From: Escherichia phage BB1
DNA: 64,000 bases
Strand: one strand, 5' to 3'
Sequence record: NC_106597.1
Shown here: positions 7,913 through 43,015 of the stretch, piece after piece
Layout of the letters: each line of letters opens with the position of its first letter
Numbering within the stretch: the first letter of the stretch is position 1
Made by a program: the position numbers and the translations under genes
The notes under the pieces: model-generated
What the model saw: the letters and a program-made list of their open reading frames with translations, nothing else
What the model was told of the DNA's origin: nothing
Databases searched by the model: none

Positions 7913-10051
7913 TTACCTTATATGGATATACCCGTTTTGCAGGTCTATCTTCATTTTGTAAGATCCCTCTGGATTAGAGGATAGTGCGGCTGCACGATCA
8001 TATATAATATTTACACCAATTTGTGATAAGAAAGCGTTATTAGCAACAATTTTACTAGCAGTTACCGTACCATTAACTATCATATCACCATGTAAAACCA
8101 TTGCAGGGCTAGCCCATGCTGAACCATTCCACTGCCTAGTGAATGCTGTTCCTGGTGCCCCACTTTTATACTCGGTTAATACATCATATTTAACAGGACC
8201 AGTACCAAAATTAGATGTAAAAAACGAATTAGCCTGAGAATCATTCCATGCCGTTAAGTTAGCAATAGCAAGAGAATACATTCCAGGACCACGTTGTCCG
8301 TCTGCTCCTGGCCGCCCATCAGCACCTGGTTTTCCATCGGCACCTGGTTTTCCATCAGCACCTGGTAGTCCATCAGCTCCCGGCTTACCATCTACCCCTT
8401 CTGTACCGCTCCATTGAACTACATCTGACCAACTAGTTCCGGATACTAATTGATTAGTAACAGGGTCCAGAGTACCCGTAGAACAGTAAATATTCTGAGT
8501 ATTAGATATTCTATTCGGCGGAGTTTTAGACCAACCAGAAGGTGGGTATGCAGGGCTTGTTGGTTTAGCAGGTAATGAAGTACCTAGAATATAAATAAAT
8601 ACTGTTTGCTTACCTTGTATACCTGTTTCTATATCAATATCGCCATTAGGTGTACCAATTACAACTCCACTAGAAATTCTTAATGTATCACCATCGAAAC
8701 GAATATATTGCGTAGCATTACCAATATCTACTTTTGGCTTCGCAGTAGCATTATCCATGCCCATCCAAATACCAGATTTTGTATCTCCCCAAGTTTTACC
8801 TTGAGTATAAATTGCTGGGTTGTCTTGACCAGTTAAGTTAGTCATTACAAAGTTCGCAGCATTAATGGTTTTAGTTATTACACTTCCATCAACGTTAATT
8901 ATCTTTTTAATAGGGTCAAAAGATATTGGTGCTTTTCCTTCTGCATCTAGAAGACCTATATTAATAGCACCTGTAGCAGCATCTATTAGGAAGGTTTGTT
9001 TCCAGGTAGATCCATCTTTGATCTTACCCTTAATGTACGCGTAATTTACTTCGATACCAGTTTCATTAACAAAACTATTATCTAATGGAGTACTCTCATT
9101 TAATATAAATGTCTGTACTGCGGAATCAGTAACATCTTGAGCATCTGGTCCCCAGGCAATAGATGACACTTTAAATTTATGCTCTACTTTCCATGGAAAT
9201 GATATAATTGTTGCTGACTGAGCAGCACCCACGTTGATTTTTTGTGCCTTAGTCCATCCAGTTCTAGCAAATTCTGCTGAATCTATATATGATAGAACGA
9301 ATTCACGAACGTTGGCGCCTGTCCCTCTATTCCAATCCCATTGCACACGTAAATCATAGCGTTCTTTACCATCCGCTATACGCGCAGCTTTAAACACAAT
9401 ATTAACAGGAGCTGTAGGAGGTACAAAGTTATATCTAACTTCAAAGACAGTAGGATACTCATAGTATCCAGATGAATCAATAGTTACTCCGTCTGGCAGG
9501 GATACTTGTCCAGAAATTCTTACCTTATAGGATCCGATTGGCACACCACCAAACATAATAGTTGGCATCAACGCACCAACATAATATTTAACCCACGGAT
9601 TATTAGCATTAGAATTATTTTTTAATTCTATAGTACAATAATCAGCTTCTCCTGTAGTATCTATATAAACTATTGGCGCTCCAACACCTACGTCTACAGG
9701 CTCTGATTCACATCTAACACCTGTAATTCTAGGTGCTGACTTCATTTTAAAAGTTTGTTTATCAGATAGATTAATACCTATCTGAGCATTAAGTAGTTCA
9801 GAGTCTATTATAGAATCATAAAATGCACCCTGAACTTCATAAGTTGTTGTAGGTTTTAAGTTATTAATAGTTACAGAAAAGGTATCAACTCCAGTAAAAT
9901 CTCTACGAGTAACGTTGCTACCTTCTTTAAGCCAAAAAGATCTACCTATAACGTCATAATCAGAATAGATAGAATGCTGGATATACGCCAACGTATATCC
10001 AGTTAAGACGCTATTTAGAACCATTTTAGCTGGTGCATTATTTGAAATCAT
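7913..10051 (-). CDS. baseplate / central fibre protein (pb4-like) with collagen-like repeat
   Basis: 712 aa; contains [36 protein letters not shown]; position between collar and baseplate hub genes. Confidence 0.6.
8285..8400 (-). repeat. collagen-like G-X-Y coding repeat inside the pb4-like gene
   Basis: Three near-identical copies of ggttttccatc(g/a)gcacctggt on the plus strand encoding the GKPGADG heptad. Confidence 0.7.
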
Positions 10052-12901
10052 TTAAATAGTAGCCCAACCAACAGATTGCTCACCATTTTCCCCTTCTGCT
10101 CTAATCCTGAATCGTAGTTTACGATTAATTCCTAAAGCACCAGAGTTTAATAGTGCAAAATCCGCCTTATTATATGTTAATAGATAGTCATAGGTATAGG
10201 CATCCTCTATCCTAATACTACGAAGCATTCTATCCTGAGAATCATGTATTTCTAGAGTATAATAAATTTCTGGAATTATTTCTTCCTCGGGTATCTTATC
10301 CCAAGCAAGTTTCACGTCTGGTCCAACAAATTCAGTCACGTCTCCAGAAGCTGTATTAGTTACTCTAAAGTTACTAACTACACTTAAGTTTCTAGCAGAG
10401 TTAAGATCCACGGAAAGGGTAACAGGAGAACTACGTCTACCATTAATATCAACAGCACGTAACTCAAAAATAGCTAAACCAGCAGGCTCACCTATAATCT
10501 CCTGAACCATCCTTTCATTAGGATTATTCTCTAATTGCTGAATTATGTAAGGATCTACATGACCTGAATGAGCTATAGAATAATATACTACGTTATTAGT
10601 AAGACTAGGTAGCCAAGATAGTTCCCCATTTTTACCTATAGCACCTATCATACCACCAGGAGTTGGTGTATACTTAAAGTCCCTAGGAGGAAGTACATTA
10701 TTACTAATATCTGGAATATCATTACCACTGTTATCCACTTGATCAGAGTTGATAAATACATCTTCACCATACTCTTGTAGTGTTAAGTTAATCTTACCAT
10801 CACGAGTATTTTCTACTTCATCTACTAGGAAGAACTTATCCTTCCACCCATAACGCTCATAAGTAAAAGCAATCGGATCATTTGGCTCTATACCAATAAA
10901 CTTATAAGGTACTGAGAAGCTAAGTGTACGTGAGTATCTAGATTTTTTAAGTTCCCTATCTGCATAACTACGAGCAGTGTAGTAGTTAGTAATATTTGCA
11001 AAAGATAGCTGAAGTTTTTTATCCAAACCCTTATCTTGTTCTTTAAACTTAGAGTTATAGAATGTAATAGAGTTTGTTTTCCAACTTAGCGCAGGATCTA
11101 CTAGGGATGCTTGTACTGAGTTAAACTTATTTCTACCAGTAGTATCAGATAAGTCTAAGTCCCCGTAAGTATCTAGAAAACCTATCTTCAAAGGAGTTGT
11201 AGAATGCTTCTCTACAGTTATTCTATACTCACCAGATAAGTTATTTATAGCTCCGCCAAAAGAATCCAGTACTCCTTGAACATTTTTAAATACTGATTCG
11301 GAGGTATCTAATATAGTGTTTAACTGAACTACTTGGCGATGTTCAGAAATAGAATCACTCCAACCAACATATCTCCAATAGGGTTGCCAGCTAATCTGAT
11401 AAGATTCATCAATTATATCTAGAATTTTTGCTTCTGATATAATCTTTTGTAGCGGGAACTGATCCAGAGTTATATTAGCCCCATAACGTTCAGAGGTTAG
11501 ATAGTCCATGAGCTGCCAGATACCGTTAAGGCTAGTTTTATCAGCTTTAACAGACCCATCAGAGCTATATACTTTGACTTTCTTACCTTGTACTTCAGCA
11601 CTAATTTCTGGAATTTCAGTTCTATTCTCATTAATAGTAAATCTAACTACAGCGTAGGCTGTGTCTAAGAGCTTATAACGAGAATCCCAGTATTCTGGGC
11701 CATTGCCATTTTGATTTTGTAAATAGAAACCCTTTCTTTTAGCGATATCCACTAATACTTGAGCTGCTGTCTGATCTGGTTTGCCATGAAAAGTCCATAT
11801 TCTTATGTCACCATTACCATCATTATACTTATACTCCTGACCATGAACAGAAGGTTGAGAAGTGCTTGTACCAGCAGCTAGTCTATGCATTGTATCACCT
11901 ACTAGTTTCTTACGACCGAAGCAGGTTCTAGTATTGGAATCTGCTTCATCGAAACAGATCATTGGGCTGTCCCCAATATAGAAATCTAGGAATCCATCAA
12001 TTTCTCCTTCCGAAAAAGCATAGACTACATACACTATATTAGGGTTATTTAGCTCAGTATCTGCAAAAATAGGGATACCAGGGATTTTCTGAACCCCATA
12101 TACAACAGGTATAAATTTAGCAGCTAAGTTAAAGTCTAAATCAACTTCTTTAGTTACAGTCTCATAATACTTTTTAAGACTGTAACTTCTTGATAGCCCA
12201 AAAAGTTTCTTCTTGGACTGAAGTTTATAACGCTCTTCTTTTACTTGATATTTAGCTAATATAGTGGTACTTTTATTAGAGTGGAAGAAGCCATAGTCTT
12301 CTTGGTACTCAGGACGTTTAGCACCATTAGAAGGTTGTAATTGTCCATTAACAACTTCAAGCCCTCGGTGGGAAGCATCATCGGTATAACGACCGTTCAC
12401 TCTATCAAAATCATAGAACTGATTAGAACAGTTCCATGTTATAACAGAGGTTCCTATACCGGAAGTACTAACGTTGTCCTTTATTCCGCCGCCAGTAATT
12501 TTACCACGAAAGAATAGTAAAGGTCCATTAGTATCAGGATCTACAGGAAGAATATTACCTTCTTCATCAATTATAGCTTGATGTATAGTGATAGTTCTAT
12601 CTAAGAAAGATACTCCATTTTGAACTAGTTTTAATACTTCATCTTCTGCTGTACCAGTTATGGTAAAAGATAGACTACCAATAGATAGTTCACGGTTTTG
12701 CTTATGGGAGCCGATACTTTTTACTTTACCAGATCTATATAAGATTCCATTATAGGTAACATCTCTAAAGTAGTCAGTTAAATAAACATAAGTAGCAGCA
12801 GAGCCTGATGAACTAGGAAGCTCTAAAGCTATAAGACAAGCTGTTTTTAGCTTGTCATGAGTATTAAGATATGTTTTAGCACTATCGAGTATCTGCTTCA
12901 T
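10052..12901 (-). CDS. baseplate hub protein (pb3-like)
   Basis: 949 aa, same length as T5 pb3; position between the distal tail protein and pb4-like genes. Confidence 0.6.
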   Translation of the reverse strand: MKQILDSAKTYLNTHDKLKTACLIALELPSSSGSAATYVYLTDYFRDVTYNGILYRSGKVKSIGSHKQNRELSIGSLSFTITGTAEDEVLKLVQNGVSFLDRTITIHQAIIDEEGNILPVDPDTNGPLLFFRGKITGGGIKDNVSTSGIGTSVITWNCSNQFYDFDRVNGRYTDDASHRGLEVVNGQLQPSNGAKRPEYQEDYGFFHSNKSTTILAKYQVKEERYKLQSKKKLFGLSRSYSLKKYYETVTKEVDLDFNLAAKFIPVVYGVQKIPGIPIFADTELNNPNIVYVVYAFSEGEIDGFLDFYIGDSPMICFDEADSNTRTCFGRKKLVGDTMHRLAAGTSTSQPSVHGQEYKYNDGNGDIRIWTFHGKPDQTAAQVLVDIAKRKGFYLQNQNGNGPEYWDSRYKLLDTAYAVVRFTINENRTEIPEISAEVQGKKVKVYSSDGSVKADKTSLNGIWQLMDYLTSERYGANITLDQFPLQKIISEAKILDIIDESYQISWQPYWRYVGWSDSISEHRQVVQLNTILDTSESVFKNVQGVLDSFGGAINNLSGEYRITVEKHSTTPLKIGFLDTYGDLDLSDTTGRNKFNSVQASLVDPALSWKTNSITFYNSKFKEQDKGLDKKLQLSFANITNYYTARSYADRELKKSRYSRTLSFSVPYKFIGIEPNDPIAFTYERYGWKDKFFLVDEVENTRDGKINLTLQEYGEDVFINSDQVDNSGNDIPDISNNVLPPRDFKYTPTPGGMIGAIGKNGELSWLPSLTNNVVYYSIAHSGHVDPYIIQQLENNPNERMVQEIIGEPAGLAIFELRAVDINGRRSSPVTLSVDLNSARNLSVVSNFRVTNTASGDVTEFVGPDVKLAWDKIPEEEIIPEIYYTLEIHDSQDRMLRSIRIEDAYTYDYLLTYNKADFALLNSGALGINRKLRFRIRAEGENGEQSVGWATI

Positions 12902-31341: not shown

Positions 31342-31579
31342 TATTGTAATTGCTTTTATTATCGGGATACTCGCTGGAGTTTTCGGGACGACTGCGGCAA
31401 TCAATAAGCATCGGGAATATATTGCGGGAGTGACGCGGGAGATTGCGGAAAGGGAGCGGAAGTTTGACGAGAAACGTGCGGAGTTTGAGCGGAAGTGGTC
31501 GGATGGATCTCGGGCGTCGCGGAAGAGATTCCGTGAGTTCAGACCAGAACACAGGTTTGATGACCCTTCTATGCGCTAA
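31334..31579 (+). CDS. small membrane protein (81 aa)
   Basis: N-terminal TM helix then Arg/Glu-rich tail; start overlaps upstream gene. Confidence 0.4.
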   Translation: MFSIVIAFIIGILAGVFGTTAAINKHREYIAGVTREIAERERKFDEKRAEFERKWSDGSRASRKRFREFRPEHRFDDPSMR

Positions 31580-31744
31580 TTTGGAAATCTCGAAATTTCA
31601 TAAGATTACACATGGAGGTGTGCCCAGTGGGTCGGGGGAGAATACTTAGTCTGCTAACCGCCACCCCCCGTTACTATTAGCAGGGTAATTGTTTCATCCT
31701 GCAACCATTTTAATCGCAGGATGAAATTATTTCAACTTTAATTA

Positions 31745-37020: not shown

Positions 37021-37139
37021 TTATTTTATAAAATAAATTAATTGACTTTTATCTGTTAGTATGCATCGGAAAGATAGCAGACTAATAATTGCTAGGATGA
37101 TAATCATGCTGGTGGATTGTAACGGCTTAAATTATTAGC

Positions 37140-37262: not shown

Positions 37263-37311
37263 AAACTATCGGCCTAAGTGAGAACCACTATCATTTAAGT
37301 TATTCACAACG

Positions 37312-37408
37312 TTATCCACAGCACAAAATAATTTGACACGATAGGCGGCGATATAAGGACTTTTGCACAGACTTATCCACAGGTTATTCCACTGTATAAA
37401 TATACAAG
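37312..37408. promoter_or_regulatory. two consensus DnaA boxes plus palindrome (left arm of a large imperfect inverted repeat)
   Basis: TTATCCACA at 37312-37320 and 37373-37381, followed by CTGTATAAATATACA. Confidence 0.6.
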
Positions 37409-40392: not shown

Positions 40393-40587
40393 ATGAGCAA
40401 TAAAATTATTGTTACCAAAACCAGTACAATGGTTGATGTTTTTTACGTTCCCGATACGCCGGAAAACCGACAAGCGGTCGAGCGTGGCGAGTATGATAAA
40501 GTGATTTATGATCACGATGGTTATTATCAACATTTGGTGGATTCCTACGGGGAGGAGGAAAAAATCACGCACCGACTACCAGACTAA
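40393..40587 (+). CDS. hypothetical protein (64 aa)
   Basis: ORF 40342..40587; internal ATG at 40393 more plausible. Confidence 0.35.
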   Translation: MSNKIIVTKTSTMVDVFYVPDTPENRQAVERGEYDKVIYDHDGYYQHLVDSYGEEEKITHRLPD

Positions 40588-40844
40588 TAATCACAGGGCA
40601 CAACTACTAGGAAGTGCCCCCCAATTCTCAAATGAGAATGATTCTCATTTGACCGCGCCCGAGATGGTTAGCCTGCTAATGGTTAGGGTGTTACGTGTCG
40701 CCTTGTGTGATCGTTAGCGAGCTAACCAATTTTTAAGCCTCCTCCAATTTTGCCATTGTTTTAGTATCCCCGCCAAAATTAAACGCGTTAGAATGCGATC
40801 TAGGACGTTTTAACGCTATATTAGAACTATTCACTGCGCAGGAA

Positions 40845-40956
40845 TACTGTATAAATATACAGTAGGATAAGCTGTGGATAAGTCTGTTAATAACGCCTCA
40901 AAATGGCTAGGATTCTGTCAAGTCAAATCGTGCTGTTAATAAGTCTGTGGATAACT
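40845..40956. promoter_or_regulatory. two consensus DnaA boxes (reverse orientation) plus 16-bp palindrome (right arm of the inverted repeat)
   Basis: CTGTATAAATATACAG at 40847-40862; TGTGGATAA at 40873-40881 and 40946-40954. Confidence 0.6.
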
Positions 40957-40974
40957 TAAATAACAGTGTTTCTC

Positions 40975-41160
40975 ACTTCCATTCTTAAATGCAAATTATT
41001 ATCATTTGTATTTCACTATCTAACTAATAATCATTTCACTTTTTAAATGAGAATCGTTTCACTTCCTGAATAATTTTCATTTCACTTTTTAAATGCGAAT
41101 GATTCTCATTATCATTCCGCTTTTTAAATGCGAATTATTATCATTATCATTCGCATTCAG
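40975..41160. repeat. AT-rich tandem repeats
   Basis: Three copies of TTTCACTTTTTAAATG(A/C)GAAT-like units and ATTATCATT reiterations. Confidence 0.6.
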
Positions 41161-41182
41161 GCTAGCAGGGCAATTGCCCTGC
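41161..41182. repeat. perfect palindrome CAGGGCAATTGCCCTG
   Basis: 16-bp palindrome centred on AATT, immediately before the direct-repeat array. Confidence 0.5.
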
Positions 41183-41188
41183 GCTTTT

Positions 41189-41788
41189 GTGCAAATCCGA
41201 CATTGCTCCATGGGTGTTACGTGCGGGCGTGTATGTGCGAATCCGACAATTTTTGGTAGTGTGCAAATCCGACCCGAAAAATTTTTATAGTGTGCAAATC
41301 CGACAATGAATTTTCCTAAAAACTCCAGCAATCACGAACTGCGTTCGAATCCTGTGGGGTATGTGCAAATCCGACATGGTTTTTCTAGGATTAAGATGTG
41401 CGAATCCGACAAGATTTTTGTGACTTCGATTGGAGGGTGTGTGATTGTGTGAGTTTGGGGAGAAGTTGAAAGAGTGAGAGAAATTTGGGGGAACTGCGGG
41501 AGGGGTGCATGTTTGGTGCGGAGCACCTGATTTGCGGGGATTTTGTGGAAGAGTTGAGAAGATTTGGGTTAATTTGAGATAAGTGCAGATAAAGTAAAAT
41601 TTTATTAGCTAAATGGGGCAAAATAGCTTGACAAGTGAAAATTTCTGTGGCTCCAAAAACTCAGGCAATCATGGGCCTTCGGCCCGAAATAATGCTGCCG
41701 TTTTCAGGAGATTATATGTTCCTAAAAACTTAGGCAATTGTGCAAATCCGACCAGTTTTTAAACTCTTGTCAGTGTGCAAATCCGACA
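41189..41788. repeat. array of 8 direct copies of a 14-bp motif GTGC(A/G)AATCCGAC(A/C)
   Basis: Copies at 41189, 41235, 41261, 41292, 41363, 41398, 41740, 41775, all same orientation, irregular spacing; non-coding. Confidence 0.7.
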
Positions 41789-42286
41789 GTAATTTCTAGA
41801 AATGTGTTTTGGAAAAATGTCTTCTAGAAATAACCGCCCTCCCAATAACCGCCCTGTATTAACCGCCTATTGCTGGAGTTTCTAGGAATATGAAAACCGC
41901 CTAAGTTGACTAGAGTTTTCCTAGAAACTTAGGAGTCTAGAAGAAAGTGTTGTGCCATCCTAGCAGATGAGCGGCAACAGGTGTATCATCTTGAACACAA
42001 ATATTGCCTTTAAATATTATAAGGTAAATAAAAGTTAATATACCCCCATTTCATGAGAGTTAGTCCCTCTAGGCGCGTGCGATTTGATACATCCTCCTGA
42101 GTCTCGGGGAGGAAGAACAATTGACGAGAACCTGCGAACAGAACCGTCATCAAGTGTTTTCCTACGAGGAATGATGTAAATCTACGGCCTAGAGGTAAAA
42201 ACAAGTTGATGTTTTTAATCTATGAGATTATTATAACACATTATTCTCACGAATGTCAAGCAAATTTCGTTACTTTTAAATTTTCG

Positions 42287-43015
42287 TCATGAGTTTGGAG
42301 TTGGGTAAATTTTTATGCAACCTTGACTTAATAGATATTTTTCTGCCTCTACAGCTTTAATATTGAATATCTCTTTTGCTCCATCGAATTTATAATGATT
42401 AGCAAATTTATTCTCGAAAAATTTATGTGCTTGGTGTTCTATTTTGTAAGCAAGTTCTTTCGATCCTTTCTTGTACTGGTAGATACCAAATACTTCCATA
42501 TCTTCAAAACCCGGCACACGCAATTTATCATACTCTAGATTCTTAAACCTTTGATGTGGCTCTCTAGAAACCCCAATCTTTGTCTTTAATTTCTTCCTAG
42601 ACTGATCTTTATTAGAGAAGATATAGAGATATGTGGGAAATTGAACATCTTCTTCTACTTCCGGTTTCTCGATAGGTGTATTGAGGTTGCTTTCTCTAGC
42701 ACATTGTAAACAACCGTGCCCATCTAGGTGAGATCTAGCAGTTTGCATAAAGTATCCTTTATGCTTATAGCACCATATCTCTACTAACTGATTGGCTGTC
42801 TTATAATTAACTCTTTCATACCCATACTCTTCTTTCTGGACTTTTAAAGCTTTCCTAATAAAGATAAGGTTTAAGGCCTCTTGTTGGAAGTCAGGGTGAA
42901 GTTGCCTAATCTTCGTTATATTAGTAGAGCCATTTGACTTCAAAAAGTTTTTAAGAGGAAACCTCCTGGCTTCCTCGCGTAGCTTTTTATTAATTTCAGC
43001 ACGTAAATCATCCAT
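42287..43015 (-). CDS. T5orf172 / GIY-YIG-like domain protein, putative
   Basis: 242 aa; YLYIFSNK ... KIGVSRE pattern resembling a GIY-YIG-related core, preceded by a Cys/His cluster (HLDGHGCLQCA). Confidence 0.35.
   Translation of the reverse strand: MDDLRAEINKKLREEARRFPLKNFLKSNGSTNITKIRQLHPDFQQEALNLIFIRKALKVQKEEYGYERVNYKTANQLVEIWCYKHKGYFMQTARSHLDGHGCLQCARESNLNTPIEKPEVEEDVQFPTYLYIFSNKDQSRKKLKTKIGVSREPHQRFKNLEYDKLRVPGFEDMEVFGIYQYKKGSKELAYKIEHQAHKFFENKFANHYKFDGAKEIFNIKAVEAEKYLLSQGCIKIYPTPNS

Follow-up and report, generated by a model that had tools for sequence, protein, structure and literature searches.

The C-poor, G-rich tract closes a T5-type terminal repeat

The window analysed here is a 64,000-nt stretch of the genome of Escherichia phage BB1 (NC_106597.1), and the element under study is a tract within it, first delimited as positions 41412-41640, whose plus strand is almost devoid of C. 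A sequence-only reading had drawn attention to this near absence of C over ~230 bp, and the composition bears it out: the 229 nt comprise 65 A, 15 C, 81 G, and 68 T, as compared with means of 46.4 ± 7.5 C and 41.8 ± 7.7 G over all 229-nt windows of the 64 kb. In particular, the tract is the global C minimum of the 64 kb (the next non-overlapping minimum has 24 C), sits within the global G maximum (86 G, in the 229-nt window at 41340), and coincides with a GC-skew peak of +0.67 in 200-nt windows. Sliding-window composition thus places the skew at the extreme of the 64 kb, and the possibility that it is not exceptional for this DNA is dismissed. The plus strand of the tract is 65% G+T and contains GGGG, GTGTGTG, and GAGAG runs, as had been described, and the skew continues 13 nt beyond the limit first noted, up to 41653.

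The source phage is T5-like (Demerecviridae), as had been supposed, with best matches at 92-94% identity to Tequintavirus phages, and the tract is conserved in about 444 phage records. The segment 41100-41900 is 87% identical to T5 over 800 bp; by alignment, the T5 equivalent of the tract is ~9976-10219 of NC_005859, and the T5 left-repeat end, 10219, aligns with window position 41653. The T5 record terminates in the same sequence (…TTGACAAGTGAAAATTTCTGTGGCTC). The repeat ends of T5, Sw2 (PhageTerm), Sepoy (PhageTerm), and phiR2-01 all map to 41653, and those of Providencia phage PR1 and Pectobacterium phage My1 lie at the homologous position, giving agreement of the repeat or genome end in six phages; the repeat end of Klebsiella phage IME260 is annotated ~20 nt further right. 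The repeat of the source phage spans 31621-41653 (10,033 bp), and the window has a concatemer-type arrangement, comprising a unique right end, the 10,033-bp repeat, and a unique left (early) region. The assignment of the tract is well supported: it is the last ~243 bp of a T5-like long direct terminal repeat, is non-coding, and abuts the right genome end, or concatemer cut site. The tract and the boundaries of the repeat are:

41412-41653, plus strand: C-poor, G-rich tract, the final 242 bp of the direct terminal repeat (composition, T5 homology)
41653-41654, no strand: right limit of the terminal repeat (…CTGTGGCTC / CAAAAACT), at which the genome physically ends or is cut by terminase
31620-31621, no strand: left boundary of the terminal repeat (alignment with T5 111532)

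In T5, the location of the tract is the non-coding "repeat region 3". The T5 record AY587007 places it between "direct repeat D" copies 6 and 7 and within it has "direct repeat A" copies 2 and 3 (copy 1 is located inside a gene), and the "injection stop signal" feature of NC_005859, 9140-10149, spans most of it.

Deposited "terminal repeat ends" in this group are inconsistent. Ends mapped from MF431730, MF431736, and NC_048110 fall at window positions ~41445-41447 and ~41190: chee24 and chee130_1 stop within the tract, at GTGTGATTG, and so miss the T5-type end by ~207 bp, and the PhageTerm end of Seafire is at the position of the nick site described below. These deviating ends are probably annotation or method artefacts, with a physical discontinuity as a possible alternative. 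Annotators are cautioned that some deposited ends stand at the nick or within the tract and not at the true end, and that open reading frames (ORFs) called in the tract are spurious.

At the other boundary of the repeat, the last late-region gene contains, 100-200 bp ahead of the left boundary (31400-31680), the stretch that ranks second in the window for excess of G over C; IME260 has a G-rich 50 bp directly at its left boundary; and, just inside the left boundary, T5 reads CCACTGCCTCCGGCG and the source phage CCAGTGGGTCGGGGG, a difference of five C/G swaps. A telomere-like symmetry of the two genome ends was considered and rejected: the left end is unskewed here and has no similarity to the right junction, and the G-rich stretch before the left cut is coding.

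Composition, length, and hairpin register are held across relatives

We aligned the tract of 15 Tequintavirus and Epseptimavirus phages. Its length is 242-244 bp in all 15, and the five gapped columns of the alignment are all single-nucleotide and mutually compensating. More than half of the columns are variable (129/245), composition is held throughout (G 33-36%, C 7-11%), and C contributes 17 of the 166 minor states at variable columns. The conserved parts are:

41415-41463, plus strand: near-invariant G/T-rich opening block (…AGGGTGTGTGATTGTGTGAGTTTGGGGAG; column conservation 0.93-0.97)
41515-41527, no strand: central palindrome or hairpin GGTGC-GGA-GCACC, 138 nt before the repeat end, stem kept in relatives
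41595-41699, no strand: ~105-bp hyper-conserved block across the repeat end (conservation 0.92-0.98 in the 15 phages)

The hyper-conserved block holds a TTGACA (41628-41633), a motif here termed M2 (41654-41669), and the hairpin GGGCCTTCGGCCC (41673-41685), and is recognisable also in Sugarlandvirus, PR1, and My1. The opening block resembles an inverted, C-purged copy of motif M2. The central palindrome contains a large share of the few C residues of the tract and occurs with other stems in other phages (GGCGT…ACGCC in GreteKellenberger, TGGCG…CGCCA in phiR2-01); where its loop differs by 1 nt, the difference is offset by an adjacent 1-nt indel. My1, of another subfamily, has an unrelated 13-bp stem 141 nt from the end, as compared with 138 nt here. 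A long-range helix of 29 pairs, rich in G.U, is predicted between 41426-41463 and 41652-41691 on the plus strand only; it would bracket the tract and include the cut site, and its pairing is kept in 99% of cells across the 15 phages, with zero compensatory changes.

The neighbours of the tract are likewise fixed in length. The segment from the nick equivalent to the sixth copy of the repeat DRD (41185-41411) measures 227 bp in four phages, two 10-nt indels offsetting each other, and the segment right of the repeat end (41654-41880) is 227-228 bp. Such spacing gives the junction region as a whole the look of a nucleoprotein architecture.

A comparable tract is present at the homologous place in five genera. 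In Sugarlandvirus, a G-rich, C-poor tract of 135-156 bp ends at the homologous block, as does one of about 150 bp in Priunavirus PR1, and in Myunavirus My1 the last 229 bp of the repeat are the G maximum (86) and the C minimum (14) of that locus. In these three genera the skew thus keeps its position while little of the sequence, or none, can be aligned. The shorter Sugarlandvirus tract (757-891 in IME260; ~2436-2573 in a second sequence) has GGGG runs with a 10.25-nt period that none of 2000 shuffles reaches. Helical phasing of G-runs was rejected as a general explanation, being significant in Sugarlandvirus only and absent in this phage and PR1.

Elements flanking the tract

From left to right, the DNA before the repeat end comprises DnaA boxes, A+T-rich DRC-type repeats, palindrome J with the nick, DRD copies 1-6 with motif M1 and its hairpin, the tract, and the repeat end; right of the repeat end follow M2, a hairpin, M3, two further DRD copies, AACCGCC repeats, a structured variable stretch, and a minus-strand promoter. 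Specifically, the flanking features are:

40873-40881 and 40946-40954, minus strand: two perfect DnaA boxes (TTATCCACA), in the IRD'-spacer-IRC' part of the T5 stop-signal region
41165-41185 (41165-41182 and a T run), no strand: palindrome J, intrinsic terminator of rightward pre-early transcription (terminator scan)
41189-41410, plus strand: DRD array on the left side of the tract, six copies of 14 bp each (GTGCRAATCCGAC; copies 1-6 of "direct repeat D" in T5 AY587007)
41317-41332, plus strand: motif M1 (TAAAAACTCCAGCAAT), a paralogue of M2 among the DRD copies, with a hairpin after it (exact-motif search)
41654-41669, plus strand: motif M2, its first base right after the repeat end (exact-motif search)
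41673-41685, no strand: hairpin GGGCCTTCGGCCC right of the repeat end, in the hyper-conserved block
41723-41738, plus strand: motif M3 (exact-motif search)
41740-41787, plus strand: two DRD copies in unique DNA beyond the repeat end (copies 7-8 of "direct repeat D" in T5)
41869-41884, minus strand: inverted copy of motif M (exact-motif search)
41925-42222, minus strand: predicted highly structured untranslated RNA downstream of the promoter (minimum free energy −90.5 kcal/mol, z = −6.0 versus shuffles)
42230-42259, minus strand: consensus extended −10 sigma-70 promoter, TTGACA-18-TGtTATAAT, aimed at the tract (12/12 match)

The groups of 14-bp repeats that had been reported on both sides of the tract are real. 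The sequence GTGCRAATCCGA(C) occurs six times in 41189-41410 and twice in 41740-41787, all in one orientation on the plus strand, against a chance expectation of 0.24. Two more DRD-like copies at 835-861 are a coding coincidence inside a long coiled-coil ORF (…VQILQVQIRQ…). Exact occurrences of motif YAAAAACTNNRGCAAT in the 64 kb are confined to M1, M2, M3, and the inverted copy, and hairpins follow motif copies 1 and 2.

Palindrome J is the sole intrinsic terminator found by our scan of this region, and it acts on the plus strand. The equivalent of the major 7.9% nick of T5 (minus strand, …CCCTGCGC / TTTT) lies at its foot, at 41184/41185, where the aligned sequence is identical. Further left, the window contains a cluster of four DnaA boxes (37300-37381, plus strand) and, 3.5 kb away, the pair in inverted orientation (40873-40954, minus strand). 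This layout fits the IRC-spacer-IRD / IRD'-spacer-IRC' scheme of Davison (bioRxiv 10.1101/866236), in which the IRD'-spacer-IRC' part of the T5 stop-signal region is described.

The leftward promoter (42259 to 42230) lies ~600 bp from the tract and has no annotation in the T5 records. It is conserved in six aligned phages, including T5, DaisyDussoix, Sw2, phiR2-01, and GreteKellenberger, and is found also in Sugarlandvirus K30lambda2.2 and in PR1, at least four genera in all. No conserved ORF is present downstream of it in 41925-42222, and the ~300 nt that follow it are, from the predicted folding, a candidate non-coding RNA aimed at the repeat end.

The tract is not a gene or a repeat array

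A protein-coding function of the tract was rejected. Different records annotate ORFs in it on different strands and in different frames, variable sites are spread without 3-periodicity (47/44/36), and single-nucleotide indels shift the frame; searches of the tract against Pfam and PHROG returned no matches. Two minus-strand frames are open at once, as is expected of a G-poor strand with few stop codons. A covariance-model scan of 40500-42400 against Rfam gave nothing near the gathering score. An internal tandem or dispersed repeat as the source of the skew was likewise rejected, the best 16-mer self-match being 13/16 and within shuffle range, and no consensus site for integration host factor (IHF) was found in the tract. 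The conserved TTGACA was considered as part of a rightward promoter and discarded: it has no acceptable −10 element, and the promoter scan lists no promoter there.

The leftward RNA of the tract is predicted to resemble a Rho loading site

The constraint on the tract is one-stranded and compositional rather than on sequence, and the tract therefore probably acts as a transcript. The relevant strand would be the minus strand. In the minus-strand RNA of the tract, (C−G)/78 nt reaches 0.46, the highest value on either strand in the 64 kb (99.9th percentile, 0.35); its 242 nt contain 55 YC dinucleotides, as compared with 22.9 ± 6.7, and G-free runs of 66 and 50 nt; and its predicted folding energy of −21.9 kcal/mol is the weakest of 1,054 windows on both strands (−52.9 ± 9.4 kcal/mol). 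The plus-strand RNA has average predicted folding. In the leftward sense, a stable hairpin stands just before the tract and a conserved hairpin stands 126-138 nt into it; a hairpin together with C-rich unstructured RNA is the usual anatomy of Rho-dependent terminators. The minus strand of the tract thus carries the computable hallmarks of a Rho loading site. In this phage, the terminator scan yielded no minus-strand intrinsic terminator in the interval that separates promoter and tract.

We tentatively favour a reading, drawn from sequence, of the tract as a zone of Rho-dependent termination or insulation that would act on leftward transcription and is set in a genome-end architecture. In this proposal, RNA polymerase would arrive from the early operon and from the promoter at 42259, in the left repeat and in concatemers; would pass the GC-rich hairpin (41685-41673); and would then transcribe the tract into ~240 nt of RNA that is rich in C, almost free of G, unstructured, and untranslated. 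Rho would load on this RNA, and transcription would stop at the central hairpin or at the DRD array. As a result, the repeat, with its pre-early genes, stop-signal region, and cut site, would be kept free of antisense transcription. A second constraint would set the fixed length and the hairpin register, the tract serving also as a spacer between the DRD array and the cut-site block.

Several points weigh against this proposal. PR1 keeps the skew even though a canonical intrinsic terminator separates its leftward promoter from the repeat end, which suggests that termination is not the whole story. The fixed length of 242-244 bp, the position-locked hairpin (138 versus 141 nt from the end), and the place next to the cut site are not requirements of a Rho-utilization (rut) site and fit a role at the DNA level better. 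The right-repeat copy in the virion has nothing to its right from which it could be transcribed. In addition, leftward transcription might mostly be stopped before the tract, by the predicted structured RNA at 42222-41925 or by a weak hairpin and U-rich stretch near 41945 (seen by eye in a conserved block), and both the crossing of the repeat end by leftward transcripts and the action of Rho there are predictions.

Alternative readings of the tract

A close rival to Rho loading is a role in terminase recognition or architecture, of cosB or pac type, in which the tract would be a platform for terminase or for accessory proteins that cut at 41653/41654 and start packaging. We regard this as possible, if rather doubtful, and the two readings are compatible, since an RNA-level constraint could fix the composition and a DNA-level one the length. 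Because the left end of T5 is the first to be injected, the right end should, by the usual last-in, first-out rule, be packaged first, which would place the terminase recognition region at the tract; the packaging direction of T5 is itself deduced in this way, which weakens the argument. The position and geometry of the tract speak for terminase: it adjoins the mapped genome end in six phages; the conserved ~105-bp block that spans the cut is confined to the left repeat and to concatemers; the length of 242-244 bp is fixed through compensating 1-nt indels, next to neighbours also fixed in length (227 bp); direct DRD repeats flank the tract; motif M begins at the first base past the cut; the hairpin register is kept across subfamilies; and the G-runs of Sugarlandvirus recur every 10.25 bp, near the DNA helical repeat. 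However, binding to duplex DNA leaves unexplained why C is purged from one strand at positions that otherwise vary freely, the interior is 53% variable and contains no significant internal repeats and no IHF consensus site, the tract has no similarity to the left-end junction, and phasing of ~10 bp is absent in this phage and PR1.

The remaining alternatives place the function of the tract in DNA entry, recombination, or DNA structure. The sequence-only reading had suggested a pause site, and this idea survives in part: most of the tract falls inside the broad "injection stop signal" of the T5 record (9140-10149), in a region that all T5-like phages retain. Transfer pauses once 8% of the genome is in the cell; the tract would at that moment be in the tail or at the envelope, where its unusual duplex, or a partly single-stranded state, might help to halt or restart first-step transfer. 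Such a role in the stop or restart signal is nonetheless unlikely. The stop or shear point is estimated to lie at about 9618 in AY587007, ~280 bp to the left of where the tract begins, and across genera the tract tracks the repeat end, not the DnaA boxes; the candidates of Davison, DnaA-box inverted repeats and DRE repeats, are further left, and the piece from the stop signal to the repeat end is there counted as second-step DNA (bioRxiv 10.1101/866236). Less probable still is a recombination-prone right end. There, 5' resection, or the shedding of the 469 nt of minus strand that lie past the 99.6% nick, would expose the 3'-ending plus strand, and this strand would readily invade a second copy of the repeat, promoting the formation of concatemers. 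The strand that ends 3' at the right terminus is indeed the G/T-rich one (65% G+T), RecA-type proteins prefer GT-rich DNA, the nick homologue lies 469 nt from the right end on the opposite strand, and the repeat has an excess of Chi octamers on the plus strand (two versus ~0.05 expected). Nevertheless, the plus strand has an ordinary degree of structure, RecBCD would have degraded the tract by the time it reached the Chi sites, and the left end has no counterpart. A G-quadruplex (G4) or R-loop, both of which had been proposed from the G-rich skew, now appears very improbable. The G4Hunter maximum of the window (1.8) does fall in the tract, at 41483, G-runs occupy conserved positions, and Sugarlandvirus tracts, and these only, have true canonical G4 motifs, many of them. 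However, the peak segment here is not conserved in T5, no set of four G-runs (at least 3 G, loops up to 12 nt) is present in the tract, and the canonical motif is absent in 14 of 15 Markadamsvirinae, this phage included. A G-rich RNA would moreover require rightward transcription, for which terminators stand upstream of the tract and no convincing promoter was found; the only strong conserved promoter points leftward and would yield C-rich RNA. The least probable of all is a strand-specific nick in virion DNA, also put forward earlier. T5-like virions do have minus-strand nicks, one major nick among them in this same non-coding region, but the mapped position corresponds to 41184/41185, 228 bp upstream of the tract, and the tract contains no GCGC and only 15 G in 229 nt of its minus strand.

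The Chi octamers (GCTGGTGG) just mentioned lie within the terminal repeat at 37108 and 39809 on the plus strand, the expectation of ~0.05 being per 10 kb, and are oriented for activity on RecBCD entering from the right end. T5 AY587007 has Chi at 8048 and 8610, and PR1 and My1 have Chi octamers on both strands.

Comparison with known systems

The closest parallel is the T5 "repeat region 3", or injection stop region, which is orthologous DNA (87% identical over 800 bp) with the same order of landmarks: DnaA boxes, DRC repeats, palindrome J and nick, DRD1-6, tract, repeat end, and DRD7-9. This region is said to have been sequenced in 1987, by Heusterspreute et al., and the left terminal repeat reportedly has been annotated since 2005, the work of Wang et al. 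Its repeats have been catalogued, and its function is called unknown in papers of 2020-2026. The T5 literature differs from the present analysis in that it names the repeats and places the stop-signal candidates further left (Davison, bioRxiv 10.1101/866236).

With rut sites, the tract shares a C-rich, G-poor, YC-rich, unstructured, and untranslated predicted RNA past a promoter, with one hairpin before it and another within ~130 nt; unlike rut sites, it is much longer and more extreme than needed, has a fixed length, and abuts a genome end. The concatemer junction of T7 and T3 has flanking short repeats, a transcription pause, and a promoter aimed at the junction. The tract resembles this junction in the aim of its promoter, and resembles both the junction and lambda cosB in lying directly beside a mapped end, presumably on the side packaged first, with short direct repeats flanking it; it differs from them in having no repeated internal binding motif and no IHF site. 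With the primer-forming sites of ColE1 and mitochondrial CSBII, the tract shares a strong excess of G over C on one strand and G-runs; it differs in that the available transcription runs opposite to the direction needed and in that its G4 motif is not conserved.

Implications for T5-like genome ends

In the literature searched, we found no mention of the strand asymmetry, fixed length, or conserved hairpin register of the tract, of the coincidence of M2 with the cut, or of the family-wide conservation of the skew, although an earlier mention is possible; nor did we find the Rho or terminase-spacer readings there. What is known is the region itself, inside which the tract may be a rut-like zone, a terminase-site spacer, or both. 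A further proposal, which we consider improbable, is that the tract couples transcription to genome-end processing, with a polymerase that is stalled or removed by Rho at the junction marking or clearing the site for terminase, or that it determines the T5 injection pause or restart. Such transcription-coupled end processing would be a host-polymerase counterpart of the T7/T3 concatemer-junction pause.

How T5 injection pauses, and how genomes with 10-kb terminal repeats are cut and packaged, are long-standing questions, and in both cases suspicion usually falls on the non-coding DNA of the repeat end. The present analysis overturns nothing. It splits the region into testable parts, namely the nick and terminator, the DRD arrays, a composition-constrained tract of fixed length, a locked hairpin, and a cut-straddling block, in a layout common to five genera, and so turns an old puzzle into specific constructs. 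If the proposed function is correct, a composition-coded, strand-specific signal at the repeat end would be a new kind of phage genome-end element.

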